64,000 bases of DNA from Burkholderiales bacterium. Lineage in GTDB: Bacteria > Pseudomonadota > Gammaproteobacteria > Burkholderiales > SG8-39. This document shows, piece by piece, positions 1 through 60,003 of this stretch. The DNA is taken from assembly GCA_036560705.1 (NCBI GenBank), contig DATBQR010000016.1, positions 3,133 through 67,132 on the forward strand, read 5' to 3'. Each line of letters starts with the position of its first letter. Position 1 is the stretch's first letter. The translations under genes and the position numbers were made by a program. The notes under the pieces are model-generated. The model had not been told where the DNA came from. It saw nothing but the letters and a program-made list of their open reading frames with translations, and did not search any database.

Positions 1-100
1 CTTCGACCGCCTCGTCGGCGGTGAAGCACGGGAAACCGCGCGGCGTAGCGATGCCGAACTTGCGGAACAGTTCTTTGCCCTGGTACTCGTGGATTTTCAT
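1..100 (-). CDS. sucC: succinate--CoA ligase beta subunit, N-terminal fragment (gene runs off the left edge)
   Basis: Reverse complement of 1-100 reads [33 protein letters not shown], the conserved SucC N-terminus. A GGAGAAGG Shine-Dalgarno (complement of 108-115) lies upstream. Confidence 0.8.
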
Positions 101-174
101 GCGGAAGCCTTCTCCCCTGCGTTTTCGCTCTATCGCGGGATGTTAGCACTCGCCCCCTTGCTAGAATCATTGAC

Positions 175-1686
175 ATGCGTCATGTCCTCGCCCTCGACCA
201 GGGAACCACCAGTTCGCGCGCGATCATATTCGACGAAACCGGCAGGCCGGTGGCTTCCGCCCAGCAGGAATTCAAGCAGCACTACCCGCAGCCCGGCTGG
301 GTGGAGCACGATCCGGACGAAATCTGGCGCTCGCAGCGCGACGTCGCGCGCGCGGCGCTGAGGGATTCCGGCCTCAAGGCCGAAGATCTGGTCGCCTGCG
401 GCATCGCCAACCAGCGCGAAACCGCCGTCGTCTGGGACCGGCAGACCGGCAAGCCGATCTACCCGGCGATCGTGTGGCAGGACCGCCGCACCGCCGCGCG
501 CTGCGCGGAGCTGAAAGAGGTCGGCGCCGAGAGCCTGGTGCGCGAGCGCACCGGCCTGGTGCTCGATCCCTATTTCTCCGGCACCAAGGTGGCGTGGATC
601 CTGGACAATGTCCCCGGTGCGCGGCGCCGCGCCGAGCTGGGCGAACTCGCCTTCGGCACAGTGGACAGCTGGCTGATCTGGAACCTGTCGTACAGCAAGA
701 CGCACGTCACCGATTCCACCAACGCTTCGCGCACCATGCTCTTCAACATCCACATGGGCGACTGGGACCCGGAGCTGCTGCAGCTGATCGGCGTGCCGCG
801 CGCGATGCTGCCCGACGTCTATCCCTCGTCGCATGCCTTCGGCATGATCGCGCCCACGGTGCTGGGCGTGCCGATACCGATCACCGGCGTCGCGGGCGAC
901 CAGCAGGCGGCGCTGTTCGGCCAGGGATGCCACAAGGCCGGCATGGCGAAGAACACCTACGGCACCGGCTGCTTCATGCTCATGAACACCGGCGGCCGGG
1001 TGGTGAAGTCCGCCAACGGGCTGCTCAGCACGGCGGCGGCGCAGGTCGGCCGCGCAGTCGACGCGCGCGACGCCGACAAGGAATACGCGCTGGAGGGCAG
1101 CGTCTTCATCGGCGGCGCGGTGGTGCAGTGGCTGCGCGACGAGCTGAAGTTCTTCGGATCCGCCGCCGACGTCGAAAAAATGGCCTCCGAAGTGCTCGAC
1201 AACGGCGGCGTCTACATCGTGCCCGCCTTCGCCGGCCTGGGCGCGCCGCACTGGGACCCGCACGCGCGCGGCGCGATCATCGGCCTGACGCGCGGCTCGT
1301 CCCGCGCGCACCTTGCCCGCGCGGCGCTTGAATCCATCGCCTACCAGAGCGCCGACCTGCTCGAAGCGATGCAGAAGGACGCGGGCGAGAAGCTGACCGA
1401 GCTGCGCGTGGACGGCGGCGCGGCGGCGAACGACCTGCTGATGCAGTTCCAGGCCGACATCCTCGGCGTGCCGGTGGTGCGGCCGAAGGTGCTCGAAACC
1501 ACCGCGCTGGGCGCCGCCTACCTGGCGGGCCTCGCGACCGACGTCTGGAAATCCCGCGAGGAGATCGCGGCGCAGTGGCAGATGGATCGCCGCTTCACCC
1601 CGGGCATGCCGCGCGACGAAGCGGCGGCGCTGCTGGCGCGCTGGCGCGAGGCGGTGAAACGCTCCCTGGCCTGGTCCCCGGATTAG
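175..1686 (+). CDS. glpK: glycerol kinase
   Basis: 503-aa ORF. N-terminus [20 protein letters not shown] and FGGY-kinase similarity run along the full length. Confidence 0.97.
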
Positions 1687-1692
1687 GGACAG

Positions 1693-2442
1693 TCAGGGAC
1701 GGACGGCGGGGGTTTCCAGCTTCATCCCGCGGGCGCGCCACATCAGGTACAGCTCGAGCTCGACGAATTCGGGCGAACCGTATTCATAAGGCTCCGCACG
1801 CACGCCGATCATGCAGTTGCGCAGCCGGCGCTGCAGCGAGCCCACGCCCTGCCATTCGAGCCGGTAGATCGGGTAGCCGGTCGGATGCGCCTGCGGGATC
1901 GGGTTGCCGGCGAGCCTGGCGCCCCAGCGCTCGTCGTGGCACTGGGCGCAGGCAATATTGAGCTGCCCCTCGCGGCGGTTGAATGCGGCGCGGCCGGATT
2001 CGAGGTACGGCTTCAATTGCTCCGTGACCTCGATGTCGATCGGCATGCCGCGCGACTGGCGGCCGACCCAGGCGGAGAGCGCGAGCAGGTCGCGGCTCTC
2101 GAGTTGCAGGGCCGGCGCTTTCTGCCGCTCGACGCGGCAGGCGTTGATGCGCTGGTCCAGATTGAGCAGTTTCCCGGCATGCAGCGCGGGATAGCGGGCC
2201 GCCACCCCCTTCATGCTGGAGTGGCAATCGGCGCAGGCCTTGCCCGCGGCGCCGGCCTTCTGGTTCCAGAGCGCCTCGCCGTCGAGCACCCAGAGCGTCG
2301 CCGGGTTGGTGGCGTCGTCGTCCTGCATGGCGCGCGTGTCGCGGCCCATGAATTCGTAGCCGGAACGGCGATCGGCAAGGGGAATCTCCGCGCCGGCTGC
2401 CGAACTGCAGATCAGGACCAGAATCAAAAAACGCGCGGTCAC
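1693..2442 (-). CDS. soxA: SoxA-type dihaem cytochrome c (L-cysteine S-thiosulfotransferase subunit)
   Basis: ORF 1693-2496 trimmed to the GTG at 2442 (GTGA overlap with the soxZ stop), giving signal peptide VTARFLILVLICSSAAGA. Two CxxCH sites (CADCH, CAQCH) and SoxA-like GSLQRRLRNCMIGVRAEP...ELYLMWRARG. Confidence 0.9.
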   Translation of the reverse strand: MTARFLILVLICSSAAGAEIPLADRRSGYEFMGRDTRAMQDDDATNPATLWVLDGEALWNQKAGAAGKACADCHSSMKGVAARYPALHAGKLLNLDQRINACRVERQKAPALQLESRDLLALSAWVGRQSRGMPIDIEVTEQLKPYLESGRAAFNRREGQLNIACAQCHDERWGARLAGNPIPQAHPTGYPIYRLEWQGVGSLQRRLRNCMIGVRAEPYEYGSPEFVELELYLMWRARGMKLETPAVRP

Positions 2443-2759
2443 TCGACCGTGATCTCCGCCGACTCGCTCGCCGAGAACAGATTGTCGCCGGTCCACTTGA
2501 ATTCCAGCTTCCCGCTCTCGGTCGCGATGGTGGTGAATTCGATCAGCGGGTTGGCGGCGACCGCGGGATGGAAATCGGCGCGGAGGATTTCCTCGCCGTT
2601 ATAGGTGCAGACGAAGAGGCGAATGATGTCGCGCGGGATCAGGGTGCCGATCTCGGTGCGGCGGAACCCTGTTTCCATGATGTGGCCGACCAGCGCCTTG
2701 ATCTCGATGATCTGGCCCCGTTTCGCCGTCGCGGGAACGCGGACGATCGCACGCGCCAT
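2439..2759 (-). CDS. soxZ: SoxZ sulfur-carrier partner protein
   Basis: 106-aa ORF (…KRGQIIEIKALVGHIMETGFRR…CTYNGEEI…) of SoxZ size and sequence type. It starts 25 nt after the soxY-like gene. Confidence 0.9.
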   Translation of the reverse strand: MARAIVRVPATAKRGQIIEIKALVGHIMETGFRRTEIGTLIPRDIIRLFVCTYNGEEILRADFHPAVAANPLIEFTTIATESGKLEFKWTGDNLFSASESAEITVE

Positions 2760-2784
2760 GTTCAGCGCTCCTCTCCGGCCACGG

Positions 2785-3222
2785 CTACTTCACCTCTTCC
2801 GTGCAGGCCGCGAGCGTCACGACCACCGCCACGCTGTCGGACCAGAAACTGCCGTCGCTGAGCTGCGCGACCGCCAGCAGCGTCTGCGAATCGGCGACGC
2901 GCACGCGGGTCGTGAAGCGCGCCCGCCCCGAGCGCGGGCCCAGGTAGACGCTCACCATGTTGGGCAGCGGGTTCGCCGGCGAAAAGAGGTGGATCGCCTT
3001 CACGTGCTCCGCCGCGGTCATCGGGCTGTCGACGGACACGGAGAGCACGACCGAATTGCCGTTCTCGATCAGCGGCGCAACATCCAGCTTGACCTTCCCC
3101 TTCGTCACCGGCCTGCCGCCAGTCACCTTGCCGACGGCCTCCTGCATGCTGTCCGGCGTGGCGTGCGCGGTCCCGGCCGCGAGGCCGCAGGCAAGCACGA
3201 GAAAATCCCGGCGCGTCGTCAT
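2785..3222 (-). CDS. soxY: SoxY-related carrier protein with non-canonical C-terminal arm (…VVVTLAACTEEVK)
   Basis: 145 aa with a twin-arginine signal (MTTRRDFLVLACGLAAG) and SoxY-like length and body. The C-terminus is AACTEEVK rather than GGCGG. Read directly from codons GCG GCC TGC ACG GAA GAG GTG AAG TAG. Confidence 0.85.
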   Translation of the reverse strand: MTTRRDFLVLACGLAAGTAHATPDSMQEAVGKVTGGRPVTKGKVKLDVAPLIENGNSVVLSVSVDSPMTAAEHVKAIHLFSPANPLPNMVSVYLGPRSGRARFTTRVRVADSQTLLAVAQLSDGSFWSDSVAVVVTLAACTEEVK

Positions 3223-3232
3223 TCCAGGCCCG

Positions 3233-3643
3233 TCATTTCAATGAACTCAGAAAAGCCACCACGTCCTCGATCTGTTGCGCGTTGAGCACCGTCTTGCCCC
3301 GGTATGCGGGGGCGACCCGCGTCAGGCCTTCGTCCCGGAAATACGCCGGCATGACGGTCGCCGGATTGAAGCGCCCCGGGTCGACGATCCTCAGCCGGAT
3401 CTCGCCTTCGGACAGGCGCGCGCCGATTCCGTTCAGGTCCGGCCCGATGCTGCCCTGGAACCGTTCCTCGGGAAACGGCCCGCTGTGGCACAACAGGCAC
3501 AACCCCAGCTGCCGGCTCACCACGATCGCCCGGCCGCGCGCCGGATCGCCCCTGGCGCCGGCCGGCCGGCCGGGCAGGTCGTCGTTCGAGAAAACGCTTC
3601 CTGACAGGGCGAGCAGCAGTGCGAAGGCGCAAGCCCCCTTCAC
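3233..3643 (-). CDS. soxX: SoxX-type monohaem cytochrome c
   Basis: GTG start 4 nt after the upstream stop. Signal peptide, single CLLCH haem site, and C-terminal …GKTVLNAQQIEDVVAFLSSLK as in SoxX. Confidence 0.88.
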   Translation of the reverse strand: MKGACAFALLLALSGSVFSNDDLPGRPAGARGDPARGRAIVVSRQLGLCLLCHSGPFPEERFQGSIGPDLNGIGARLSEGEIRLRIVDPGRFNPATVMPAYFRDEGLTRVAPAYRGKTVLNAQQIEDVVAFLSSLK

Positions 3644-3647
3644 ACCC

Positions 3648-5825
3648 TCACACCATCTCGATGCCGTGATTCTTCAGCGGGAAGGAACGAATGCGCTTGC
3701 CGGTGGCCGCGGCATACGCGTTCAGCACCGCCGGCGCCGCCACGCAGATGGTCGGCTCGCCCACGCCGCCCCAGAACCCGCCCGAGGGCATCACGATGGA
3801 CTGGACCTTCGGCATCTGCGCGATGCGCATCGAGTTGTAGTCGTGGAAGTTCGACTGCTCGATGGCGCCGTCCTTGACCGTGCACGCCTGCATGAATACC
3901 CCCGACAGGCCGTAGACGAACGAGCCGGCGATCTGGCGCTCGATCTGCGCTGGATTCACCGCGTAGCCGGTGTCGGTCGCGGCGACGATTTTATGCACCT
4001 TGACCTTGTTGCCGTCCTTGACGGAAACCTCCGCCAGCGCCGCCACATAGCTGCCGAAGGCCCTGAAGTGCGCGAGGCCGCGGTAGCGCCCGGCCGGCGC
4101 CTTCCTGCCCCAGCCGCCTTTTTCCGCCACCGCGTTCAGCACCGCCAGCGATTTCGGATGATCCGCCATCAGCCTGCGGCGGAATTCCAGCGCGTCCTGG
4201 CCGGCCGCCTGCGCGAGTTCGTCCATGAAGCACTCGAGGAAGATGGCGTTCTGGTTGATGTTCACGCCGCGCCAGAAGCCCGGCGGCACGTGCGTGTTGC
4301 GCATCGCGTGGTCGATCGTCAGGTTCGGCACGCTGTATTCGAGGGAGTGTTCTCCCGTGGGCCAGTAGCCCTGGAAGGTGAAGATATCCTTGCCCTTGTC
4401 CAGCGCCTCGGGGCGCGCGGAAGCGAGGATCGACTGGCCCGACAGGCGGATTTCCAGTCCCACCAGGTTGCCGCTCGCGTCCAGGCCTCCGGTCAGCCTC
4501 GCCTTCATCACCGGGTGGTACCGCCCCTGCGCCATGTCTTCCTCGCGCGACCAGAGCAGCTTCACCGGGGTGCCCGGCATCTCCTTGGCGATCAGCACGG
4601 CCTGGCTCACGTAGTCCGTCATGCCGCGCCGGCCGAAGCCGCCGCCCAGGTGCACCTTCAGCACGTCGCATTTCGCCACCGGCAGGCCGGCGGCTTCGGC
4701 GGCGGCGGCCAGCGCCGCTTCGCCGTTCTGCGTCGGGCACCATACCGTACAGCGGTCGGCCGTGTAGAGCGCTGTCGCGTTCATCGGTTCCATGCAGGCG
4801 TGGTTCTGGTACGGATAGTCGTAGACGGCCTCGATCTTCTTCGCCGCGCCGGCAAGGGCTGCCTTGGAATCGCCTTTCTTGTTGTGGACGAACGACTGGT
4901 CGGCATCCAGGCCCGCGTTCAGCATCGTGTCGATGTCGGCGCTGGAAATGTTCGCCGACGGGCCGCTGTCCCACTCGATCTTGACGGCATCGAGCGCGGT
5001 CTTGGCGTGCCACCACGTGTCGGCGACGACCGCCACTGCGTTGTCGCGCACGCGTACGATTTTTTTCACGCCAGGCATGCTTTCAGCCTTGGCCGAATCG
5101 ACGCTCTTCACTTTGCCGCCGAATACCGGGGAAGCCTTGATCGCCGCGTTCAGCATGCCGGGCAGCTTCAGGTCGGCGCCGTAGACCTGCTTGCCGGTGA
5201 GTTTGTCCGCCGTGTCCAGCCGCTTGAGCGGCTTGCCGATGATCTTCCAGTCCTTCGGGTCTTTCAGCGGCACGTCCTTCGGCACTTCGAGCCTCGCCGC
5301 CGCCTCGGCCACCTTGCCGTAGGTCGTTTTGCGGCCCGAGGCCTTGTGCGTGATCACGCCGAGCGAAACCGCGCATTCGGAGGCGGGCACTTTCCATTCT
5401 TCGGCCGCCGCCTGGATCAGCATGATGCGCGCCGCCGCGCCGCCCTTGCGCACGTAGTCTTGCGAGGTGCGGATGCCGCGGCTGCCGCCGGTGCCGTAGT
5501 CGCCCCAGATGCGCTTGCGGGCCACGTTGGTCCCGGGCGTCGGATATTCCCAGGTGACCTTGTTCCAGTTGCACTCGAGTTCCTCGGCCACCATCTGGGC
5601 AAGGCCGGTAAGCGAGCCCTGGCCCATCTCGGAGCGCGCGATACGCACCACGACGGTGTCGTCCGGGCGGATCACCACCCAGGCGCCGATTTCCGGCGAA
5701 CCGTCCGCCGCGCGAACCACTGCGGTGCCGCTGAAAGGGTTGATGCCGATGGCCAGCCCGCCGCCGACGGCGGCGCTGGTGATGATGAAGGAGCGGCGCG
5801 AAATTTTGGGAGCGTTGATGTTCAT
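3648..5825 (-). CDS. xanthine dehydrogenase/aldehyde oxidase family molybdopterin-binding subunit (IorB-like), TAT-exported
   Basis: 725 aa with a twin-arginine signal (KISRRSFIITSAAVGGG). Similarity to IorB-type Mo-binding large subunits throughout. Confidence 0.9.
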   Translation of the reverse strand: MNINAPKISRRSFIITSAAVGGGLAIGINPFSGTAVVRAADGSPEIGAWVVIRPDDTVVVRIARSEMGQGSLTGLAQMVAEELECNWNKVTWEYPTPGTNVARKRIWGDYGTGGSRGIRTSQDYVRKGGAAARIMLIQAAAEEWKVPASECAVSLGVITHKASGRKTTYGKVAEAAARLEVPKDVPLKDPKDWKIIGKPLKRLDTADKLTGKQVYGADLKLPGMLNAAIKASPVFGGKVKSVDSAKAESMPGVKKIVRVRDNAVAVVADTWWHAKTALDAVKIEWDSGPSANISSADIDTMLNAGLDADQSFVHNKKGDSKAALAGAAKKIEAVYDYPYQNHACMEPMNATALYTADRCTVWCPTQNGEAALAAAAEAAGLPVAKCDVLKVHLGGGFGRRGMTDYVSQAVLIAKEMPGTPVKLLWSREEDMAQGRYHPVMKARLTGGLDASGNLVGLEIRLSGQSILASARPEALDKGKDIFTFQGYWPTGEHSLEYSVPNLTIDHAMRNTHVPPGFWRGVNINQNAIFLECFMDELAQAAGQDALEFRRRLMADHPKSLAVLNAVAEKGGWGRKAPAGRYRGLAHFRAFGSYVAALAEVSVKDGNKVKVHKIVAATDTGYAVNPAQIERQIAGSFVYGLSGVFMQACTVKDGAIEQSNFHDYNSMRIAQMPKVQSIVMPSGGFWGGVGEPTICVAAPAVLNAYAAATGKRIRSFPLKNHGIEMV

Positions 5826-5835
5826 GATTTTCTCC

Positions 5836-6285
5836 CTATGCCTTGGCGGCCGTGTGGATGGCTTCGCGCACCTGCTGGAAGGTGCCGCAGCGGCAGATGT
5901 TGGTCATCGCCGCGTCGATCTGCGCGTCGGTCGGATGCGGCGTTTTCGCAAGCAACGCCGTCGCCGCCATGATCATGCCGGACTGGCAGTAGCCGCACTG
6001 CGGCACATCGTGCGCGAGCCAGGCTTGCTGCACCTTGGTGAGCTTGCCGTTCGCCGCGAGGCCTTCGATGGTAGTGATCTTCTTGCCCACCGCAGCGCTG
6101 GCGGGAATCCCGCAGGAGCGCATCGGCACGCCGTCCATGTGAACCGTGCAGGCGCCGCACTGGGCGATGCCGCAGCCGTACTTGGTGCCCGTCAATCCGA
6201 CCTGTTCCCGGATCGCCCAGAGCAGCGGGGTTTCCGGCTCGACGTCGATGTTGTGGACCTTGCCATTGATGTTCAGGCGGATCAT
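5836..6285 (-). CDS. (2Fe-2S)-binding small subunit (IorA/CoxS-like)
   Basis: 149 aa. Two [2Fe-2S] cysteine clusters ([11 protein letters not shown] and CGYCQSG…CRCG). GAGGAGG Shine-Dalgarno upstream. Confidence 0.92.
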
Positions 6286-6316
6286 TGCGGGTGCCTCCTC
6301 TGATAGTCTTCAGATT

Positions 6317-7030
6317 CTAGCTTTTCCATACGCGGCGGGCGAATTCCGGGTAGTTCTCCGCGATTTGCTCCGCCACCGGGCCGCGCAGCAGGGAAAGTTC
6401 CTCGTTCCCCGGTGCCGGAGTGGTCTTCACCGGCAATGCTCGATCGAATTCAAAACCCGTCAAATCGAGTATCTCCTCCAGCTTGACGCCCGGGTGGATG
6501 CTCTCCAGGCGAAAACGGCGCCGGTCCTTCTGCCACAGGAACAGCGCCTTGCCGGTGAGCAAGGCCTGCGGCCCGCCGCGGCGCTCGACTTCCGGCGGGC
6601 TCCAGCCGGGCGCGGAAATGAAGTCCACCTTCGGCACCAGCACGCGCCTCGAATGCTCTTCGCGGAACAGGATGGTGCGGCCGGCGGCGAAATACATGAA
6701 CGCCGAGCCGAAGGAACCCGGAAAGCGCTTGCCCTCGGCCTGCACCAGATTGATGTTCGCCTCGCCGTCGATCTGCGCGCCGCCGAGGAAGAACAGGTCG
6801 ATGCGGCCCTGCCCCGCGAGGTCGAACAGCTCCCGCGAACCCTCCGTGAACGGGTTGCCGCTGCGCTTCTGCAGCAGGGAAATGCGCAGCTTTGCGTTAT
6901 GGGCGGCCTTGCGGAAAAAAGCGCCGGTAGCGGGGATCGGCGAGGCCGCCCCGACCGCCACGTGGCCCGCGTCGCCGATCAGGCGCGCGATGCAGCAGGC
7001 GAGGAGTTCTTCTTTGGCGTACGGTTCCAT
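6317..7030 (-). CDS. CoA-transferase subunit B (glutaconate/3-oxoacid CoA-transferase family)
   Basis: 237-aa [36 protein letters not shown]… typical of beta subunits. It overlaps the subunit A ORF by 52 nt. Confidence 0.85.
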   Translation of the reverse strand: MEPYAKEELLACCIARLIGDAGHVAVGAASPIPATGAFFRKAAHNAKLRISLLQKRSGNPFTEGSRELFDLAGQGRIDLFFLGGAQIDGEANINLVQAEGKRFPGSFGSAFMYFAAGRTILFREEHSRRVLVPKVDFISAPGWSPPEVERRGGPQALLTGKALFLWQKDRRRFRLESIHPGVKLEEILDLTGFEFDRALPVKTTPAPGNEELSLLRGPVAEQIAENYPEFARRVWKS

Positions 7031-7848
7031 ACGTATTCGTCCAGGTAGCGCTGGAACCCTTCCTTCGTCTTCGCCGCCTTCGCGTAGAGGCCGAGGTGCG
7101 CGTCATCGATCCCGTAGAGCCCGGCGACCGACAGCGGCCACGCGCCGCGCTCCGCCTTCGCCACGCCGCTGACGTACACCGAGGACAGCACGCCCGGCGC
7201 GAGCAGCTCGTCTTCCAGCATGTCGCCCGGCCGCCTTTCCTCGCAGGTGACGAAACACCGGCGGGAGGCGTGCGCGATGGTCGCCAGTTCCTTGCGCCGG
7301 CCGATCCAGACGTTGCCCGCCTCGTCCGCCCAGCGCACGTGGAACAGCGCGACATCGGGCTGGATCGCCGAAACCAGAAGGATCGGATCCTTTTCCTTCA
7401 ACGGATTTTCAATGATTTTCCAGTCCGGTCTGAGCGCAACGAGATCAGACCCGATCACGCCCCGCATGGGCATGAACGGCACGCCCTTCTCCGTCGCCTG
7501 CAGCCCGCCGTGGATCGCCGGACAGGTGGCGTCCCTGACGCGGATTTCGCCGCGCTCGGCCGCCTCGGTGAAGCGCGGCGCGAGGCCCGCTTCGCCCAGC
7601 GATACCGCGCTCGATTCAACCTCGGCGACGCAGCCCGCGCCGATCAGCAGGTCGGCGCTCAAGCCCAGCACCGGCACACCGAGAAGTTTCAGGTTTTTCG
7701 CCTTGCGGCGGATCAGCGCATGAACCACCGCCATCGCCGGCGTCGAGTAATCCGGCGGCAAGCCGAGAAAAGCGCCGTCCGGAATTTGCTCCGCTATTTC
7801 TTCGGCGTCCTTGAAAAAGCGGACTTCATTCGAGGGCAAACCGCTCAA
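6979..7848 (-). CDS. CoA-transferase subunit A
   Basis: 289-aa ORF with TTG start in a TTGA overlap with the tldD stop. Alpha-subunit-like sequence (…[18 protein letters not shown]…[17 protein letters not shown]…). Confidence 0.85.
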
Positions 7849-9287
7849 GCGGTACCACCCACGGTCAAACCATCGATCTTCAATGTAGGCTGGCCGACGC
7901 CCACCGGCACGCTCTGGCCTTCCTTGCCGCAGGTGCCCTGGCCGCCGTCCATGCGCATGTCGTTGCCGATCATGCTGACGCGCGTGAGCGCGTCGGGACC
8001 GTTGCCGATCAAGGTCGCGCCCTTGACCGGGTGCGTGATCTTGCCGTTCTCGATCATGTAGGCTTCAGAGGCCGAGAACACGAACTTGCCGTTGGTGATG
8101 TCCACCTGGCCGCCGGCGAAATTGGCCGCGTACAGGCCCTTCTTCACGCTCCTGATGATTTCCTGCGGATCGCGCGCGCCGGCAAGCATGTAGGTGTTGG
8201 TCATGCGCGGCATCGTCATGTGCGCGAACGATTCGCGGCGCGCGTTCCCAGTCACCGGCATGTTCATCAGCCGCGCGTTCAGGCTGTCTTGCATGTAGCC
8301 GCGCAGGATGCCGTCTTCGATCAGCACGGTGCGCCGAGTCGGATTGCCCTCGTCGTCGACGGTGAGCGAACCGCGCCGGTCCGGCAGCGTGCCGTCGTCC
8401 ACTACCGTGACGCCGCGCGAAGCCACGCGCTCGCCCAGCCGGCCGGAGAACGCGGAACTGCCCTTGCGGTTGAAATCGCCCTCGAGGCCGTGGCCGATCG
8501 CCTCGTGCAGCAGGATGCCCGGCCAGCCGGGTCCCAGCACCACGGTCATGGTGCCCGCGGGCGCGGGCTTCGAATCCAGGTTGACGAGCGCCTGCGCCAC
8601 CGCCTGCCGCGCGTATCCATCGAGCGCCGCGTCGGTGAAATGCGAGTAGTCGGTGCGCCCGCCGCCGCCGGCGAAACCCATTTCGCGCCGGCCGTTCGCC
8701 TCCGCGATCACCTGGACGGAGATGCGCACCAGCGGGCGCACGTCCGCCGCCAGCACGCCGTCCGAACGCGAGATCAGCACCACTTCGTATTCGCCGCCCA
8801 GGCTCGCCATGACCTGCGTGACGCGCGGATCGACGGCGCGGCACATCTGCTCTAACTTCTCCAGCATCCTGATCTTCTGATTCGAATCAAGCGACGCCAG
8901 TGGATCGAGCGGCTCGTAGCGCCGCGGCGCCCGGTTCTTCGCGGCGACTTTCGTCTTCGCGGAAGCGCCGGCATTGCCGATGGCCCGCGTTGCGCGCGCC
9001 GCGTCCTGCAGCGCCGAATAGCTGATTTCGTCCGAATAGGCGAAGGCGGTCTTCTCCCCGGAGATCGCGCGCACGCCCACGCCCTGCTCGATCGAGAAAC
9101 TGCCCGACTTGACGATGCCTTCCTCCAGGCTCCAGCCCTCCGAGCGCGTGTACTGGAAGTAAAGGTCGGCATAGTCGAGCCGGCGCGCGGCAAGCGAGCC
9201 GAACACCGAGTCCAGCTTGCGGCCCTCGAGGTCGAACGGGGCCAGCAGGCAGGCATCCGCGGTGGCAAGAAGAACGTCGGCGTCCAT
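7845..9287 (-). CDS. tldD: metalloprotease TldD
   Basis: 480 aa with the [11 protein letters not shown] zinc motif and TldD/PmbA-family similarity over the full length. Confidence 0.95.
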
Positions 9288-9353
9288 CGGTTCGATTACC
9301 TCACTGGGCCCGGTGCTGCAGCGCGAGCATGGATTGTCTCATTTCGGCCCGCG

Positions 9354-12300
9354 TCATCGGTTCTGGATTCCGGGCCCCTCCAGCGGCCCCGGCGGCGACG
9401 GCGGCGGCGGCGGCAGCAACTTCTCCACCTTTGGGTCCGACCAAGTGCCGGTAATGGCGTAGCGGTAGGCAAAAATCTGTCCGAGCGGATTGTTGAGCAG
9501 GCGCCCCGCGATCAGCGTCGCCACGCCCACCACCGGATTCAGCAGGCCGACGACCGTCGAGGCCGAATCGCCGAACTGCGGGATCACCTTGACGGTCAGA
9601 TTCTCCGTCTCGAGGGAAAGATCGACTTGACCCGACATGTGCACGTCTGCCGCGGGCCCTCGCATGTGGAATTCCTTGAGCGCCATGACGCCGCGCGCGA
9701 TCTCCACGGAACTCCCGATGTGGTCGAACTGGAAGCCCTTGGAGAATACGTCGCGAAAATCGAGCGCGATGCGCCGCGGCAGCATCTGCAGGCTCATCAG
9801 CGACACAAGCTTGCCGATGCCGGGTTCGATCTCGAGGAACTGGCCGTCCTCCACCTGCATCTGCACCGCGCCGCCCAGCGTCGCGTAGTCGAGCGTCACG
9901 GGATCGCCGTTCCAGTTCAGCGTCCCCTCCACCTTGCCGCGCCCGCCCTTGATGTGGTCCGGATTGCCGAAGCGGTCGAGGAACCTGCCCGCATCGCTGA
10001 TGTCGAGCTTGAAGGCGAGCGAAGTGCGCGAGTTCTCGCCCTGCTTCCACAGGCCGCTCGCCGACAGCGCGGAATCCGGATTGGTCATCGCCAGCTTGTC
10101 GATGCGCCAGTCGCGGCCTTCGTGGCGCGCCTGGATTTCGACCCGCCCGAGCTTGCGGCCGCGATGGGTGAAGTCGTCCGCGACGATATCCGCCGCCGGC
10201 AGGTCTTTCAGGCCCTCGCCCGGCCGGGTTCCCGGCGAATCCTCCGGCAGCGAGAAGCGCGAGAAGCGCGCCACCAGCCTGCCGCTGCCCTCGGAGCGGT
10301 ACACCAGGTCGCCGGAGAATTCGGCCGAGGTCATGTTCGCCGACCAGCCGTTGCCTTCGGTCACCCCCTGCATGGTCACCGCCCGCATGCGCTTGCCGAG
10401 CGCGTCCAGTACGCCGACCTTGAGGTCGTAGCTCGTGCCGTCGGCGCTGGCGCCGCCCTCGGCGAGCAGCGGCAGCCAGCGGTCGAGGTCGAGCGCCGGC
10501 AGCGTGCCGCGCAGCGTCATGCCGCGGCGTTCGGGAATCCTCGGCGTCTCGCCCGGAACCGGATTGAGCGTGATCAGCGAGCGCTGCATCTGCATCACGC
10601 CGGCCTGCGCGGCGCTGGTGCCGCCCTGCGCGGCACTGGGCTGCGCAGCACGCAGGAACTCCGCCGAGAAGATGCGCCCTGCCGACGGCCCGAGCGCCAC
10701 CGAAATGCGGTCGCGCCCCTCGCCCGGAAACACTTCGATGCGCAGCGGCAGCGTCTCGCCGGCGGCTTTCGACAGCGGCGCCGGCAGCGCGCTCGACACG
10801 CCCTCGAGCGGAGACTCGAAGTTGAGTTGCGCGCGGCCCTCCTTCACCGTCACGGTGGCGGTATAGCGCGCGCTGCCGGCCAGCCGCTTGCGCCACGGAT
10901 TGTCGAAAAGCGGGCGGATTCCGTCGACGGTAGCCCTGCCCTCGGCAACCACGACCATGCTGGCATCGGGCTTGGTGCCGCCCGAGATCCGCACCTGGTC
11001 GCCGAACAGCTGGCCGCGCATGTCGCGCAGCGACAACGACGCCTCGGTGAAGCCGATGCGGCCGCTCGCGCGCTCGATCGGCGGCAGGCGCGGGTCCACC
11101 GTAAGAGTGTTGGCGGCAAACTGGTACTCGCCCGCGACCTTGCTCTTGGCCATCTCGCGCAGCATCAGTTCCAGACGCAGGCGCAATCTGCCGCGGCCGA
11201 TGGAAGTCATGCCGTCGGTAAAACCGGCGACCATGCGCCGGACCGGGCTCTGCCTGACGTAATCCAGGAACAGCGCCGTGGGTCCCTCGGCGGCGCCCTC
11301 CACCACCAGGCGCGGGTTCTCGTCGCGCATGCTCGGCAGGGTCACGCGGACATTGGCGATCTTCGCGCCCAGGATGCTGCCGCTGCGCCCGACGATGTCG
11401 ATCTTGTCGCGCTCGAACAGCAGGTCGGCCTCGATCGCCTCGATGCGCGGCCAGCCGGCGGCATAGTCGAGCACCCCGTCCGCAACCTTGGCCGTGACCT
11501 CGAACTGGCCCTTCGACGGGTCGACGAACGGAAAGTCGTTCAAGTCGCCCTTCAACCGCATGCGCACGTCGCTCGCCCGGCCCTCGACGACCGCGCTCGC
11601 CACCCAATCGCGCGTGCGCGAGCCCATCACCGTGGAAAGCGGAAGATATTTGGCGGTGCTCTTGCCGTCTGCACGCGCGAGCTGCACGGTGAGATCGACC
11701 ACGCCGCGACCTTCTCCGCTCCATGCGTAGGTGCCGGAAGCGGTGCCCGCGAGATCTTCGTTGGCGAAACTCAGGTTGCCGAGGCGAACGGCGAGCCCCG
11801 CCGCCGCCCCGCCGGTCCCGCCGGTCCCGGCGGTCCCGGTGATCCCAGTGCGCTCCCAGCCGACCTCGCCGTTCAGGGCGTCGAGCTGGATGCGCGGCTC
11901 CGGGAACACCTTGGGCAGGTCGACCTCGCTCTTGCGCGAGATGAGAGCGACCACGCCCTTTTTCTCGGTCGCCTCGAGGGTCCCGGACAGTCCGGCGAAT
12001 CCCGGGATGCTGCGCCATGCGTTCATGGTGAGTCCGGCAAAGCGGGTCTTCGCGGTGAAGTTCGCCCGGTCGGGCAGCTCTCCGGTCCAATCGATCTTCG
12101 CGTCCAGCAGGTTGCCTTGCGGCGCGAGTTCGGCGAGCAGCCTTCTCAGGTCGGCGGGGAACGGCATGAACTCCGCCAGGCGCGCGAGCGGCGCCAGTTC
12201 GATCAGATTGGCGCTGACCGAACCGCGCTGCGCAACCCCGGGCCCTGCGCCGGGATTCCAGACGGCACGAAAGCTGGTGGAATGCATCTCCGGCGCGCCC

Positions 12301-13274
12301 GGGCTCGACAGTGCCAGGCTGCGCACGCCGAAATCGTAGCCTTGCGCGGTCTGGCGGCCGAAAACGCGGCCGCGCACTGCGGACACTTCCAGCACCGGCA
12401 GGTCCTTGGCGAGCTGCGCCGATACGTTCGACAGCGCAACGTCCGCCGTCGCCTGCGAAACCCTGCCGCCGGAAATCGTCGCCCACAGGCGCAGCGCGCC
12501 TTCGCCGCGGCGCACGTCCAGCGGATAGTCCACCCACGAGCGCCAGCCGGCGAGGTCGGTGTAGCCGAATTCGGCGAACACCCTGCCGCTCCAGTTCGCC
12601 GGCTGCTTCACGCTGTTGCCCTCCAGCGCGGCGCGCACTTCCAGGCCCGGGCCGAGTTCGCGCGGCGGACGCGCGGAAAACCCCGCCGCGTGCTCGTCGC
12701 CGTCGTTGCGCAGGCGGAAATTGAGCGCCGACAGCAGGAGCGGCGGCGCCTTGCGGCTCTCGTCGAGCCACTCGACCTCGGCGCCGCGGATGACGATCTC
12801 GCTCTGGTTCAGGAGCCAGTCGGTGAGCTTGCCGTCGCTCTTGTCGCCGGAGATGCGGATGCCGGCGACGTAGAGCTCGCCCTGCGCATCGCGCCGCACG
12901 GCGAGTTTCGGCCCGTCGATGAGGAAGGAATGCAGCCGCAGCTCGCGCGCGATGAGCGAGCGCCACGCCACCACGTTCTCCACCACCGGCAGCACCAGCG
13001 CTTCGCGCCCGTCCTTGTCGTAGATGCGCACGTCGGAGATCGACAGCCGCGGCCGCAGGCCCTGCCAGTCGGTGGCGAGCGCGCCGATCTTCACCTGCAG
13101 GCCGATGGAGCGGGAAATCGCGGCAACGATGTCCCCGCGGTACTGCTCCACGTTCGGCAGCAGCCAGTAGCGCAGCGCGAGGAAGACCATCGCGAAGGCG
13201 AAAAAAGCCGCCCAGGCGAGCATTTCGAGCGCGCGGATGAGGGTGCTGAGCGGGATTTTTAACGGGGTTCGCAT
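9354..13274 (-). CDS. yhdP: YhdP family (AsmA-like) large envelope protein
   Basis: 1322-aa ORF trimmed to the ATG at 13274 (MRTPLKIPLS…), followed by one N-terminal TM helix and a long beta-rich body typical of YhdP. The alternative ATG at 13322 would leave only 11 nt to glnE. Confidence 0.9.
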   Translation of the reverse strand: MRTPLKIPLSTLIRALEMLAWAAFFAFAMVFLALRYWLLPNVEQYRGDIVAAISRSIGLQVKIGALATDWQGLRPRLSISDVRIYDKDGREALVLPVVENVVAWRSLIARELRLHSFLIDGPKLAVRRDAQGELYVAGIRISGDKSDGKLTDWLLNQSEIVIRGAEVEWLDESRKAPPLLLSALNFRLRNDGDEHAAGFSARPPRELGPGLEVRAALEGNSVKQPANWSGRVFAEFGYTDLAGWRSWVDYPLDVRRGEGALRLWATISGGRVSQATADVALSNVSAQLAKDLPVLEVSAVRGRVFGRQTAQGYDFGVRSLALSSPGAPEMHSTSFRAVWNPGAGPGVAQRGSVSANLIELAPLARLAEFMPFPADLRRLLAELAPQGNLLDAKIDWTGELPDRANFTAKTRFAGLTMNAWRSIPGFAGLSGTLEATEKKGVVALISRKSEVDLPKVFPEPRIQLDALNGEVGWERTGITGTAGTGGTGGAAAGLAVRLGNLSFANEDLAGTASGTYAWSGEGRGVVDLTVQLARADGKSTAKYLPLSTVMGSRTRDWVASAVVEGRASDVRMRLKGDLNDFPFVDPSKGQFEVTAKVADGVLDYAAGWPRIEAIEADLLFERDKIDIVGRSGSILGAKIANVRVTLPSMRDENPRLVVEGAAEGPTALFLDYVRQSPVRRMVAGFTDGMTSIGRGRLRLRLELMLREMAKSKVAGEYQFAANTLTVDPRLPPIERASGRIGFTEASLSLRDMRGQLFGDQVRISGGTKPDASMVVVAEGRATVDGIRPLFDNPWRKRLAGSARYTATVTVKEGRAQLNFESPLEGVSSALPAPLSKAAGETLPLRIEVFPGEGRDRISVALGPSAGRIFSAEFLRAAQPSAAQGGTSAAQAGVMQMQRSLITLNPVPGETPRIPERRGMTLRGTLPALDLDRWLPLLAEGGASADGTSYDLKVGVLDALGKRMRAVTMQGVTEGNGWSANMTSAEFSGDLVYRSEGSGRLVARFSRFSLPEDSPGTRPGEGLKDLPAADIVADDFTHRGRKLGRVEIQARHEGRDWRIDKLAMTNPDSALSASGLWKQGENSRTSLAFKLDISDAGRFLDRFGNPDHIKGGRGKVEGTLNWNGDPVTLDYATLGGAVQMQVEDGQFLEIEPGIGKLVSLMSLQMLPRRIALDFRDVFSKGFQFDHIGSSVEIARGVMALKEFHMRGPAADVHMSGQVDLSLETENLTVKVIPQFGDSASTVVGLLNPVVGVATLIAGRLLNNPLGQIFAYRYAITGTWSDPKVEKLLPPPPPSPPGPLEGPGIQNR
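11811..11846. repeat. 4 x 9-nt in-frame tandem repeat inside yhdP
   Basis: Plus strand reads gccggtccc gccggtccc ggcggtccc ggtgatccc. It encodes GITGTAGTGGTG within the YhdP ORF. Confidence 0.6.
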
Positions 13275-13333
13275 TGCGCCTGTCGCGACTCCTATATCCT
13301 CTTTGACAACCGCAACACCCATTTTATCCGTAA

Positions 13334-15886
13334 ATGCCGGATCCGATTCGGAAAATCGCCCTTTCGCGCCACGCCCTCCAGCGTCTCGCCGCGCGTCCGG
13401 AACTGGCGGCGGAAGCCGATGTCGCGCGCGCCGCGCGGGCCCCCTTCGGCGCGGCCGAAATGGCGCTGGCTCTGGCAGGCGCGCAGGACGACGACGAAGC
13501 CGCGCTGAAGCGGCGACTGCGGCGCCTGCGCGAGCGCGTGCTGCTGCGTACCATGGCGCGCGACCTGGAGGGACTCGCCGGCCTCGCCGAGGTGTGCTCG
13601 ACGTTCAGCGACCTGGCGGAACTGGCGATCGGCGCCTGCCTCGCCTGGCTGCGCGACGGCGATCTCATCGTCGTCGCCATGGGCAAGCTCGGCGGGCGCG
13701 AGTTGAACGTGTCCTCCGACATCGACCTCGTTTTCGTCCATCCCCGCCTCGACGAAGATGCGGCCGACCTGCAGCAGATCGAACGCACCGGCCGCAAGCT
13801 GATCGCCCTGCTGAACGATGTCACCGACGACGGCTTCACCTTCCGCGTCGACATGCGGCTGCGGCCCTACGGGGACTCGGGGGCGCTGGTCAGCAGCTTC
13901 GGCGCGCTGGAAGCGTACTTCGTCGCCCAGGGCCGCGAATGGGAGCGCTATGCATGGATCAAGGCGCGCGCCGTTTCAGGCTCCGATCCCGATAAAAAAT
14001 CCCTTGCGGAAATTGTCCGGCCTTTCGTCTACCGCAAGTATCTCGACTACGCGACGCTCGCGGCCATGCGGCGCCTGCACGCCGAGGTGCGGCGCGACGT
14101 CGCGCGGCGCGAGCTTGCCGGGCACGTCAAGCTCGGCCCCGGCGGCATCCGCGAGATCGAGTTCATCGCGCAGGCGCTGCAACTGGTGCGCGGAGGACGT
14201 GATCCGATGCTCATGGCGCGCCCGACGCTGGAAGTGCTGCAGGAACTCGCAAAGAAAAATCTTCTTCCAGGAAGCGCGGCCGACGAGCTGTCCGCCGCCT
14301 ACGTATTTCTGCGCAACGTCGAGCACCGCCTCCAGTACCTGGACGACGCCCAGACCCATGAACTGCCCGCCGACGCGGAGGACAGGGGGCGTCTCGCGCA
14401 GATGGCCGGCTTCAGCTCCTGGGAGTCGTTCTACGTGGCGTTGACCGTGCATCGCCAGGCGGTGACGCGCCAGTTCCAGGCGGTGTTCGCGCAGCCCGGC
14501 GCGGAGCACGAAGCGAAGCCGTGGCCCGACCATCCGCGCCTCGCCGCGCTGCGCTCGAGCCAGCGCTACCTGCAACTGCCCGAAGATTCGAAGCGCCGCT
14601 TCGACGCGCTGATCCCCGCCCTCGCACAGGCCGCGGCGGCGACGCCGGATCCCGCGGCGACGCTGGTGCGCGGCGTCGACCTGATGGAAGCGATCGCGGG
14701 GCGCGCCGCCTATCTGGCGTTGCTCGCCGAACGGCCCGAGGCGCTGCAGCGCGTCACGCGCATGATCGGCGCCTCGAGCTGGGCGGCGGAATACGTGACC
14801 CGGCATCCGCTGCTGCTGGACGAACTTCTGGATGACCGGCTGCTGTACGCGGCGCCCGACTGGGAGGAATTCGAAGGCGGCCTGCGCGCGGCGCTTGCCG
14901 CCGCGGAGGGCGACGTGGAACGCCAGATGAACGTGGTGCGCGAACAGCACCAGTCGCAGCTGTTCCGGCTGCTCGCGCAGGACCTCGCCGGCCTGCTCAC
15001 CGTCGAGCTGCTGGCCGATCATCTCTCGAAGCTCGCCGACCTGGTGCTGCAGGTCTCGCTTGGGTATTGCTGGGCCTGGCTGCCCACCCGCCACCGCGAA
15101 AAACCGCTTTTCTCCGTGATCGCCTACGGCAAGCTCGGCGGCAAGGAACTGGGATACGCCTCGGACCTCGACATCATCTTCGTCTACGAGGACCCGGACG
15201 AGCGCGCGGCGGAGAATTACGCACGCCTCGCCCAGCGCTACAACAACTGGCTGACCGTGCGCACTTCCGCGGGCACGCTGTTCGAGACCGACCTGCAGCT
15301 GCGACCCTCGGGTTCCAGCGGCCTGCTGGTTTCGTCGCTGGCCGCGTTCGAGGAGTACCAGGAGCGCGCCGCCTGGCCCTGGGAGCACCAGGCCCTGACG
15401 CGCGCGCGCTACTGCGCGGGCGAGCGCGACGTCGGGAAAAAATTCGAGCAGATCCGGGAAAAAATCCTCAAGCGCCCCAGGGACCCCGCCCTGCTTGCGC
15501 GGGAGATCCTCGCCATGCGCGAAAAGATGCACGCCGCGCACCCGAACAAATCCGGGCTGCTCGACCTGAAGCACGACCGCGGCGGCATGATCGACGTCGA
15601 ATTCACGGTGCAGTTCCTGGTGCTGGCGCATTCGCATGCCCGCGGCGAACTCACCGCCAACCTCGGCAATATCGCGCTGCTGAAGCTCGCCGGGGAGCTG
15701 GAATTGGTCGACCGGGCGCTGGCGGAGAAATGCGGCAACGCCTACCGGGAATTCAGGCGACTGCAGCACGCGCTGCGGCTGAACGGCGCGCGCTACGCGC
15801 GCGTGCCGCAGCAGCAGGTCGCCACGCACTTCACGGCGGTTCGCGATCTCTGGAAGGCGGTTTTTTCCGCCTACCGGCAGCCGTGA
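13334..15886 (+). CDS. glnE: glutamine synthetase adenylyltransferase/adenylyl-removing enzyme
   Basis: 850 aa with two nucleotidyltransferase modules (…GKLGGRELNVSSDIDLVFV… and …GKLGGKELGYASDLDIIFV…). Confidence 0.95.
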   Translation: MPDPIRKIALSRHALQRLAARPELAAEADVARAARAPFGAAEMALALAGAQDDDEAALKRRLRRLRERVLLRTMARDLEGLAGLAEVCSTFSDLAELAIGACLAWLRDGDLIVVAMGKLGGRELNVSSDIDLVFVHPRLDEDAADLQQIERTGRKLIALLNDVTDDGFTFRVDMRLRPYGDSGALVSSFGALEAYFVAQGREWERYAWIKARAVSGSDPDKKSLAEIVRPFVYRKYLDYATLAAMRRLHAEVRRDVARRELAGHVKLGPGGIREIEFIAQALQLVRGGRDPMLMARPTLEVLQELAKKNLLPGSAADELSAAYVFLRNVEHRLQYLDDAQTHELPADAEDRGRLAQMAGFSSWESFYVALTVHRQAVTRQFQAVFAQPGAEHEAKPWPDHPRLAALRSSQRYLQLPEDSKRRFDALIPALAQAAAATPDPAATLVRGVDLMEAIAGRAAYLALLAERPEALQRVTRMIGASSWAAEYVTRHPLLLDELLDDRLLYAAPDWEEFEGGLRAALAAAEGDVERQMNVVREQHQSQLFRLLAQDLAGLLTVELLADHLSKLADLVLQVSLGYCWAWLPTRHREKPLFSVIAYGKLGGKELGYASDLDIIFVYEDPDERAAENYARLAQRYNNWLTVRTSAGTLFETDLQLRPSGSSGLLVSSLAAFEEYQERAAWPWEHQALTRARYCAGERDVGKKFEQIREKILKRPRDPALLAREILAMREKMHAAHPNKSGLLDLKHDRGGMIDVEFTVQFLVLAHSHARGELTANLGNIALLKLAGELELVDRALAEKCGNAYREFRRLQHALRLNGARYARVPQQQVATHFTAVRDLWKAVFSAYRQP

Positions 15887-15887
15887 C

Positions 15888-16154
15888 TCAGCGGGCCCTG
15901 GGTTTGCGCAGGTTCGGATTGGCCAGGTCGAGATCGGCCTTGACCTTTTCCCGGCTTCTCTCGTAGACGATCTCGCGCCCCATGATGCTGCCGGCGTACG
16001 CCATTCCGTTGCGGGTCGGCGCCAGCACGCACTTCATGTTGTGCATCCCCTCGCCGATGACCACCTCGATCGCCTCGGCGCGCTTGCTGTAGACCACGAC
16101 CTCCATGGTCTTGCCGGTTTCGGTGATGCGTACGGTTATCTTCTCGTTGTTCAT
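15888..16154 (-). CDS. small hypothetical protein (88 aa)
   Basis: 129-aa ORF trimmed to the internal ATG at 16154 (MNNEKITVRITETGKTMEVVVYSK…). The upstream part is Arg/Ala-rich junk. It lies 43 nt downstream of arsR on the same strand. No family recognised. Confidence 0.6.
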   Translation of the reverse strand: MNNEKITVRITETGKTMEVVVYSKRAEAIEVVIGEGMHNMKCVLAPTRNGMAYAGSIMGREIVYERSREKVKADLDLANPNLRKPRAR

Positions 16155-59994: not shown

Positions 59995-60003
59995 CCGGAA
60001 AGT

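Follow-up and report, generated by a model that had tools for sequence, protein, structure and literature searches.

The canonical Sox systems of Paracoccus and Rhodovulum combine a SoxYZ carrier, which is exported by the twin-arginine translocation (TAT) pathway and holds its reactive cysteine on a flexible C-terminal arm, with a type I dihaem SoxA and a monohaem SoxX. All of these features, including the Cys haem ligands, are retained in a six-gene operon that we studied in a 64,000-nucleotide stretch of DNA from a Burkholderiales bacterium (GenBank assembly GCA_036560705.1, contig DATBQR010000016.1, positions 3,133 to 67,132; the whole stretch is hereafter called the window). Unlike the canonical systems, however, the SoxY paralogue of this operon (SoxY') ends in an AAC-T-E-E-V-K arm and not in GGCGG, and a two-subunit molybdenum (Mo) enzyme of the xanthine oxidase (XO) family, IorA plus IorB, is encoded in place of SoxB and SoxCD.

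This enzyme shares only a proposed role with the sulfane dehydrogenase SoxCD, namely the Mo-dependent oxidation of the outer sulfur of a SoxY-bound persulfide with transfer of the electrons to cytochrome c. SoxCD consists of a sulfite oxidase (SUOX) family protein and a haem subunit, whereas the window enzyme is of the XO family, with molybdopterin cytosine dinucleotide (MCD), a putative sulfido ligand and 2Fe-2S clusters, and the folds are unrelated. Closer to it are the membrane aldehyde dehydrogenase (ALDH) of acetic acid bacteria (8gy3) and the IorAB-type hydroxylases, which likewise have a homologous large subunit, a 2Fe-2S small subunit, no subunit for flavin adenine dinucleotide (FAD) and TAT export. 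The membrane ALDH has a trihaem cytochrome c subunit, which the window enzyme lacks, and genes for enzymes like that of the window are always accompanied by those of a SoxYZ-type carrier. Between the window enzyme and 8gy3 the pocket motifs also differ (EMGQG versus EMGQH, GRRG versus GRRL, and ACMEP versus YQLEP). Divergent SoxYZ carriers tied to a non-Sox periplasmic dehydrogenase are already known in the form of the TIGR04557 carriers (PP_2677 in the Pseudomonas ped cluster; SoxYZ-S2/S4). Those are SoxY-SoxZ fusions beside pyrroloquinoline quinone (PQQ) enzymes and SoxH, while the SoxY' of the window is unfused and paired with a Mo enzyme.

The association of such genes has been seen once before. 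Starkeya novella has a second sox cluster, soxX2Y2Z2A2F2 (Snov_1982-1977), together with a Mo enzyme of the XO family (Snov_1975/1976). Kappler et al. (2013; PMC3797975) regarded this cluster as a duplicate that one species expresses poorly; they did not present it as a module that is conserved and has a non-canonical arm. By gene content, as distinct from arm sequence, it resembles the operon of the window in having SoxXA, SoxYZ and a two-gene XO-family Mo enzyme without SoxB or SoxCD; it differs in containing SoxF and in its gene order. The carrier family, too, already has a curated name. Our literature search found no paper with the term 'AACIE' and none that joins iorA or iorB with soxY or soxZ. 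We also found no description of the three results on which the present analysis centres: a near-universal, cross-phylum linkage of AAC-arm carriers to IorAB, minimal modules of enzyme plus carrier, and a conserved acidic residue two positions after the arm cysteine (Cys+2).

The operon and its carrier

An earlier note on the window, made from the sequence alone, had described six minus-strand genes in the order iorA, iorB, soxX, soxY', soxZ and soxA (Table 1), closely spaced and ending in an overlap. The list of open reading frames (ORFs) and a direct read of the strand bore this out: the gaps from iorA to soxZ measure 10, 4, 10 and 25 nucleotides (nt), and the GTG start codon of soxA (2442-2440) overlaps the TGA stop codon of soxZ (2441-2439) as GTGA. 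All six reading frames are intact, as are the export signals, haem sites and Cys ligands. The TAT signals of the Mo subunit and SoxY', and the Sec-type signals and CxxCH sites of SoxX and SoxA, can be seen in the translations as the note had stated. A motif scan found no promoter-like sites splitting the operon, and its five terminator-like matches compare with 4.5 expected from shuffling; one of these matches (2449-2436) falls within the signal-peptide codons of soxA. An Rfam scan of positions 1-16000 gave no credible riboswitch (for instance of the molybdenum cofactor type) or other RNA element.

The small subunit IorA contains the Pfam domains Fer2 and Fer2_2 and has no signal peptide; presumably it is exported while bound to the Mo subunit with its TAT signal. 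All NCBIfam matches of IorA (XdhC, PaoA and the glyceraldehyde dehydrogenase gamma subunit) stayed below their cutoffs, and its identity across 69 related loci is 70-93%. IorB carries the twin-arginine motif KISRRSFII, followed by the Pfam order MoCoBD_2, Ald_Xan_dh_C, MoCoBD_1, MoCoBD_2. Its fold can be taken as settled because it matches 8gy3_C ('Large subunit of aldehyde dehydrogenase') over nearly its full length (residues 4-719, E 3e-73). The motifs EMGQG, GGGFGRRG and GVGEP, the last of which holds the catalytic Glu, are at least 70-95% conserved in 64 orthologues, and identity across phyla is 63-95%. This Mo-cofactor-binding large subunit with its family motifs places the enzyme in the xanthine oxidase/aldehyde oxidase family, while the separate small subunit with two [2Fe-2S] domains and the TAT export signal (SRRSF) are those of the IorAB/membrane-ALDH subtype. 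None of the curated Mo-hydroxylase equivalogs compared (XdhA, PaoC, PucD, 4-HBCR alpha, CoxL and others) was reached, the best score being 200 bits versus the 780 set for XdhA. There is no FAD-binding gene among the conserved module genes, and a dedicated multihaem cytochrome c subunit of the membrane ALDH type is not encoded in the operon, in which soxX and soxA are the only haem genes.

The cytochromes are of the ordinary Sox kind. SoxX has a Sec-type signal (MKGACAFALLLALSGSVFS) and one CxxCH site, scores 77.6 bits against TIGR04485 (cutoff 61) and matches 1h31_B (E 7e-20); its CLLCH site and the Met ligand in an MP motif are conserved among relatives. SoxA, with the Sec-type signal MTARFLILVLICSSAAGA and two CxxCH sites, reaches 215.5 bits against TIGR04484, about twice the equivalog cutoff of 110. 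Its closest solved match is the dihaem Rhodovulum SoxA (1h31_A, E 3.5e-46), with which both Cys haem-ligand positions align (INAC; RLRNC versus RFRGC). SoxZ, the carrier partner, has no signal peptide, a Pfam SoxZ domain and a TIGR04490 score of 76.7 bits at a cutoff of 76. The operon therefore encodes a SoxXA with Cys-ligated haems as in canonical Sox systems, but neither SoxB nor SoxCD, as the earlier note had held for this unit. A gene list guided by the GC content of third codon positions (GC3), with Pfam checks, extended this result to the whole 64-kb window: it contains no SoxB or other hydrolase, no SoxCD, no GGCGG-type SoxY, no further sox, haem or SoxB-like gene and no other sulfur-oxidation gene beyond the operon.

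The carrier protein SoxY' combines a twin-arginine motif (MTTRRDFLVL) with a C-terminal arm that reads, directly from the codons, VVVTLAACTEEVK. With 186.4 bits it passes the cutoff (172) of the NCBIfam family TIGR04487, 'SoxY-related AACIE arm protein', a name that the note had mentioned and that proved to be real. It fails TIGR04488, which represents the true GGCGG SoxY (81.8 bits, cutoff 125). TIGR04557, the quinoprotein-associated SoxYZ carrier (cutoff 140), was reached neither by SoxY' (46 bits) nor by SoxZ (32.9 bits), and soxY' and soxZ are two separate, unfused genes. The further claim that no alternative frame yields GGCGG also stood up, in a scan of 2601-3400 and of all ORFs of the window: the peptides GGC and GGCGG occur in no frame of 2601-3400, and no ORF anywhere in the window ends in GGCG or GGCGG. 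A sequencing error or frameshift masking a GGCGG end was considered and rejected, given that no such peptide occurs in any frame and that the AAC arm is shared by the family.

Cys140 of SoxY' aligns to the GGC cysteine of Paracoccus SoxY (2oxg). An AlphaFold2 model of the protein is a beta-sandwich in which residues 139-145, the last seven, have a predicted local distance difference test (pLDDT) score below 50, as would be given by a flexible arm. Every related locus has the arm core VT[LI]AAC[ILVT][ED], and the acidic residue at Cys+2, Glu142 in the window, is invariant across relatives. We infer that this acidic side chain occupies the place of the C-terminal carboxylate of the canonical GGC-G-G arm, by which it may preserve recognition by SoxXA-type partners. 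A free C-terminus is not essential for such arms, because natural SoxY-SoxZ fusions in the representative library described below carry the arm internally, with a linker (P0306, GACAELNQAGGG...; P0331, GGCGAAG...).

Linkage of enzyme and carrier in other genomes

The SoxY' family comprised 5924 clusters in a first search at E <= 1e-5, and 1586 representatives were obtained from the representative library. Arms of the form [AS]AC[ILVT][ED] dominate the best 150 of these 1586 representatives, and GGCGG-type arms appear only lower down. In a scan of GTDB with one genome per species, 477 stretches encoded a relative, and 80 of the loci (designated by L numbers) were fetched. The window proteins were mapped onto them by tblastn; all linkage counts were drawn from tblastn because a crude GC3-based gene caller gave antisense artefacts (clusters c15, c16, c34 and c36).

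With this approach, iorA and iorB were found upstream and on the same strand in 60 of the 61 genome loci that have at least 5 kb of sequence upstream of an AAC-arm soxY. The gene for SoxZ followed soxY' in all 72 genome loci with room for it, and soxA was present in 64 of them. These loci span Burkholderiales and other Betaproteobacteria, Bradyrhizobium, Tardiphaga, Hyphomicrobiales and Methylomirabilota/Rokubacteria. An independent scan of metagenome contigs, for which the query was an alignment of more distant AACIDGG-type carriers, revealed iorAB in every one of the 22 contigs that extend 4.7 kb or more upstream. The arms encoded there include AACLEDGI, AACVEGI, AACLEYN, AACIDGG and AACLDGS. 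In the complete genome of Ca. Filomicrobium marinum the order iorA-iorB-soxX-soxY(AACIDGG)-soxZ-soxA is identical to that in the window. Since the arrangement recurs in both of these independent sets of loci, the linkage of enzyme and carrier is far beyond chance. Genes for AAC-arm SoxY proteins thus nearly always have iorAB-type genes as neighbours instead of lying in soxXYZAB(CD) clusters, so the check that the earlier note had proposed has turned out in support of its reading.

No SoxB or other hydrolase is conserved beside the module in related loci, and no SoxCD was found in those loci. Conserved accessory genes outside iorA..soxA, such as a hydrolase, an XdhC-type chaperone, a regulator or a transporter, were considered and rejected; the flanking genes are lineage specific (PrpD, an isopropylmalate dehydrogenase-like gene, a branched-chain ABC transporter, Bug/TctC, glpK). 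Because the neighbours outside iorA..soxA vary in this way by lineage, the module has sharp conserved boundaries within which neither SoxB nor SoxCD belongs.

Within these boundaries the gene content varies. The earlier account gave the six-gene order of the window correctly, but it missed a flavoprotein that is common in relatives, a possible extension of the transcript upstream (see below) and the S. novella precedent. This flavoprotein, of the flavocytochrome c sulfide dehydrogenase (FCSD)/SoxF type (Pfam FCSD_central and FCSD-flav_bind), is absent from the window and present in most alphaproteobacterial and Methylomirabilota modules. In most of those loci its 1.5-kb gene lies between iorB and soxX, and in the AACIDGG loci it follows soxA; a small cytochrome c sometimes accompanies it (examples in Table 1). 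The linkage of enzyme and carrier survives both rearrangement, as in the shifting position of the FCSD gene, and duplication (L007 and L011).

At the other extreme, nine Burkholderiales loci (L016, L018, L036, L039, L041, L056, L063, L071 and L077) have a minimal module that consists of iorA-iorB-soxY'-soxZ only. Their arms end in AACLEELP., AACLEEL, AACLEELA or AACLEEAPV, and the modules sit among Bug/TctC-type genes. No match to soxX or soxA was obtained in these nine loci at any coverage, and no credible ORF with a CxxCH site was found in them apart from a cytochrome c of L036 that lies beside a PQQ dehydrogenase. Because the nine loci keep iorAB and soxY'Z without SoxXA or a credible module cytochrome, the conserved pair is that of enzyme and carrier. 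Judged by gene content, then, the Mo enzyme and the SoxY'Z carrier form the conserved core, with SoxXA and the flavoprotein as frequent but dispensable additions.

Tandem double modules were observed in L007 (7314-15832) and L011 (7362-13132). In both, a first iorAB-soxY'(AACLEEL.)-soxZ set is followed by soxX-soxY''(SACLD..)-soxZ-soxA, and the second set of L007 is preceded by another iorAB. The SACLD arm of these two loci is a third arm type.

The AAC-arm proteins are routinely named 'sulfur-oxidizing protein SoxY' or 'thiosulfate oxidation carrier protein SoxY' by their sources (including P0391/P0392 from Filomicrobium, and names given by JGI), and a 2024 survey of SoxY dropped every sequence without a GGC motif (PMC11237559). 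As a result of such names and of this filter, a large family has been either taken for a capacity to oxidise thiosulfate or left out of account. Surveys built on these SoxY names probably over-count that capacity, and the scale is considerable: 477 matches among the scanned GTDB species genomes plus thousands of metagenomic clusters.

Possible functions of the module

The arrangement of the genes leads us to favour the view that the Mo enzyme and the carrier are directly linked in function. Tentatively, and with a chance of being right that falls somewhat short of even, we propose a widespread conserved periplasmic module in which an IorAB/membrane-ALDH-type Mo enzyme works with a SoxY'Z carrier with an AAC-x-(E/D) arm, a persulfide being oxidised to sulfite without SoxB or SoxCD. 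Two ideas had been put forward in the earlier note, one that a carrier-bound intermediate is the target of the Mo enzyme, which would take the place of SoxB and SoxCD, the other that SoxXA merely serves as cytochrome acceptor of the hydroxylase. The former is favoured by the nine minimal modules, although its chemistry, and the role of the arm as a substrate of the enzyme, are matters on which we can only infer. The latter cannot explain the linkage, because those same nine loci keep the pair in the absence of soxX, soxA and a credible module cytochrome.

In the proposed route, Cys140 would be loaded with sulfane sulfur from sulfide or a related donor, oxidatively by SoxXA and, in most relatives, also by the FCSD/SoxF-type flavoprotein; in the minimal modules loading would be spontaneous, from polysulfide. 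The SoxY' arm would then bring the persulfide to the Mo centre, which would oxidise the outer sulfur two electrons at a time, with oxygen taken from water; the electrons would exit via the pair of [2Fe-2S] clusters to c-type cytochromes in the periplasm. The S-sulfinate or S-sulfonate so formed would let go sulfite, either spontaneously or by thiol or sulfide exchange, whereby the carrier would be regenerated. As sulfite would leave without a hydrolase, the absence of both SoxB and SoxCD would be explained. The net chemistry would be that of ETHE1/persulfide dioxygenase (PDO), which converts R-S-SH to R-SH and sulfite via an S-sulfinate. This is a functional analogy without homology: PDO depends on O2 and iron and has glutathione persulfide as its substrate, whereas the proposed route would involve a water-dependent dehydrogenase and a protein-bound persulfide.

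A more tentative proposal still is that the exported XO-family enzyme takes the persulfide of SoxY' Cys140, a protein-bound group, as its actual substrate. If true, this would be the first carrier-protein-dependent Mo hydroxylase, and there would be a SoxB- and SoxCD-independent periplasmic sulfur oxidation in hundreds of soil species, including Bradyrhizobium, Burkholderiales and Methylomirabilota. More generally, an enzyme of this kind that truly works on the carrier would mean new chemistry for the xanthine oxidase family. It would also add a new branch to the sulfur cycle, or else to the carbonyl metabolism of the periplasm, among bacteria that abound in soil. The question is open to testing in the cultured strains Starkeya novella and Bradyrhizobium lablabi, and in Filomicrobium if an isolate is obtainable.

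Several points weigh against oxidation of a carrier-bound persulfide. We know of no xanthine-oxidase-family enzyme that oxidises sulfur, and the mechanism of this family, in which an sp2 C-H gives up a hydride to Mo=S, does not carry over simply to a persulfide. Among solved structures the Mo subunit is best matched by an aldehyde dehydrogenase (8gy3_C), and PQQ beta-propeller dehydrogenases of the alcohol/glucose type, which hint at carbonyl chemistry, lie beside the module in 5 of the 80 loci (Table 1). The sole exception among the 61 loci, L005 (8793-11518), encodes soxX-soxY'(AACLEELK)-soxZ-soxA without iorAB. Published expression and mutant data point in the same direction: hardly any expression of the second sox cluster of S. 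novella was seen with thiosulfate, methanol or glucose, and the study assigned it no function (PMC3797975), and soxY2 of Bradyrhizobium diazoefficiens, which may or may not encode an AAC arm, is not required for thiosulfate oxidation (PMC5748708). A protein search meant to link this soxY2 to the AAC-arm type had matches to B. lablabi and metagenome sequences only. Taken for the question of the trigger, the data from these two species argue against thiosulfate as the physiological one.

The kinship of IorB, whose best structural match is the membrane ALDH of acetic acid bacteria, would fit a carrier that handles carbonyl compounds. The thiol of SoxY' would then trap an aldehyde or C1 compound as a hemithioacetal, the Mo enzyme would oxidise the adduct to a thioester or acid, and SoxXA and FCSD would be electron acceptors or carrier-maintenance factors. 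Such a model needs no loading enzyme in the minimal modules, it has parallels in other divergent SoxYZ carriers linked to periplasmic PQQ alcohol/methanol dehydrogenases (TIGR04557; PMC11237559; PMC12997753), and the module has PQQ dehydrogenases beside it in L007, L011, L036, L052 and L057. Those neighbours are nevertheless limited to the five loci just named, and free aldehydes are oxidised by Mo hydroxylases without any thiol. SoxA, moreover, retains the full thiosulfate-coupling signature at an equivalog score, and most modules include a sulfide-dehydrogenase-type flavoprotein. On balance we consider a carbonyl carrier unlikely.

It is improbable, in our judgement, that the carrier is a sulfur donor, the SoxY'Z persulfide being used to build or mend the cyanolysable Mo=S ligand of this exported enzyme, or to feed sulfur transfer at Mo, with SoxXA and FCSD loading the carrier and a small molecule as the substrate of IorAB. 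The conserved enzyme-carrier pair would suit this role, the gene neighbourhoods of related loci show no XdhC/PaoD-type sulfuration chaperone in the module, and from what is generally known of XO-family maturation a periplasmic enzyme is beyond the reach of cytoplasmic sulfuration. PaoABC, the membrane ALDH and ordinary IorAB enzymes are also exported, however, and do without such a system, for which there is no precedent; four to six dedicated genes would be a heavy cost for cofactor upkeep. We give slightly less credence again to an ordinary aldehyde or N-heterocycle hydroxylase that has no cytochrome of its own and gives up its electrons to SoxXA, with the carrier as a bystander. The lack of an ALDH-like trihaem cytochrome subunit in the window operon and the mere 4 nt between the Mo subunit gene and soxX would fit this idea. 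Apart from the nine loci that have iorAB and soxY'Z but neither soxX nor soxA, it meets the difficulties that many modules have a separate small cytochrome c and FCSD, and that a loss of soxY'Z with soxXA kept beside iorAB was never seen. It is very hard to believe, finally, that the sox genes are a redundant or decaying duplicate, functionless and only by chance the neighbour of a Mo enzyme to which it is unrelated. The authors of the S. novella study considered 'no functional significance' for their very weakly expressed cluster (PMC3797975), and the dispensable soxY2 of B. diazoefficiens (PMC5748708) could be read in the same way. Against this stand the intact frames, export signals, haem sites and Cys ligands, the 63-95% identity that is maintained across phyla, the synteny in more than 80 independent loci and the presence of a relative in 477 GTDB species genomes.

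Flanking genes and coordinates

The neighbours of the operon in the window are listed in Table 1 with the module genes. The earlier note had the strand switching to glpK right after soxA, as is indeed the case. The stop codons of the two convergent genes are 6 nt apart (1687-1692), so a terminator of either glpK or soxA must sit inside the other gene. The glpK flank recurs in L001, L002, L005 and L008. L005, a betaproteobacterial metagenome-assembled genome, has window-like flanks (CoA-transferase B ... glpK) and just 131 nt in the place of iorAB.

On the upstream side of iorA a gap of 31 nt is followed by overlaps of 4-52 nt among two CoA-transferase-like genes and tldD. Since these genes are on the same strand and separated by no more than this gap and these overlaps, the transcription unit may begin upstream of iorA, in which case the sox and ior genes would perhaps form the tail of a longer transcript. 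The CoA-transferase/tldD flank is confined to the closest Burkholderiales loci (L001-L008) and is not in the conserved module.

Table 1. Positions of the operon, its arm codons and its neighbours in the window, and of selected genes in related loci
Feature	Position	Strand	Remarks
iorA-like small subunit	5836-6285	minus	two [2Fe-2S] domains, 149 amino acids; ORF list and direct read of strand
iorB, membrane-ALDH-type Mo (MCD) subunit	3648-5825	minus	725 amino acids; ORF list and direct read
soxX	3233-3643	minus	monohaem cytochrome c; ORF list and direct read
soxY'	2785-3222	minus	SoxY paralogue, 145 amino acids; ORF list and direct read
swinging-arm codons VVVTLAACTEEVK	2788-2826	minus	Cys140 codon 2803-2805; Glu142 (Cys+2) codon 2797-2799
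soxZ	2439-2759	minus	carrier partner; ORF list and direct read
soxA	1693-2442	minus	dihaem cytochrome; ORF list and direct read
glpK	175-1686	plus	convergent with soxA; downstream boundary of module
CoA-transferase-like gene	6317-7030	minus	weak Pfam CoA_trans match
CoA-transferase-like gene	6979-7848	minus	weak Pfam CoA_trans match
tldD	7845-9287	minus	directly upstream, context only
FCSD/small cytochrome, L048	8248-9528		example locus
FCSD/small cytochrome, L083	2129-3397		example locus
FCSD/small cytochrome, L034	7932-8231		example locus
PQQ dehydrogenase, L007	17147-19405
PQQ dehydrogenase, L011	13489-16377
PQQ dehydrogenase, L036	739-2818
PQQ dehydrogenase, L052	15893-18738
PQQ dehydrogenase, L057

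A second molybdenum enzyme is encoded far from the operon, at 57928-61239 on the minus strand. It is a cytoplasmic molybdopterin oxidoreductase of the bis-molybdopterin guanine dinucleotide type (Fe4S4, Molybdopterin and Molydop_binding domains), which adjoins a gene for a CCG/4Fe-4S protein and looks unrelated to the sox/ior operon.

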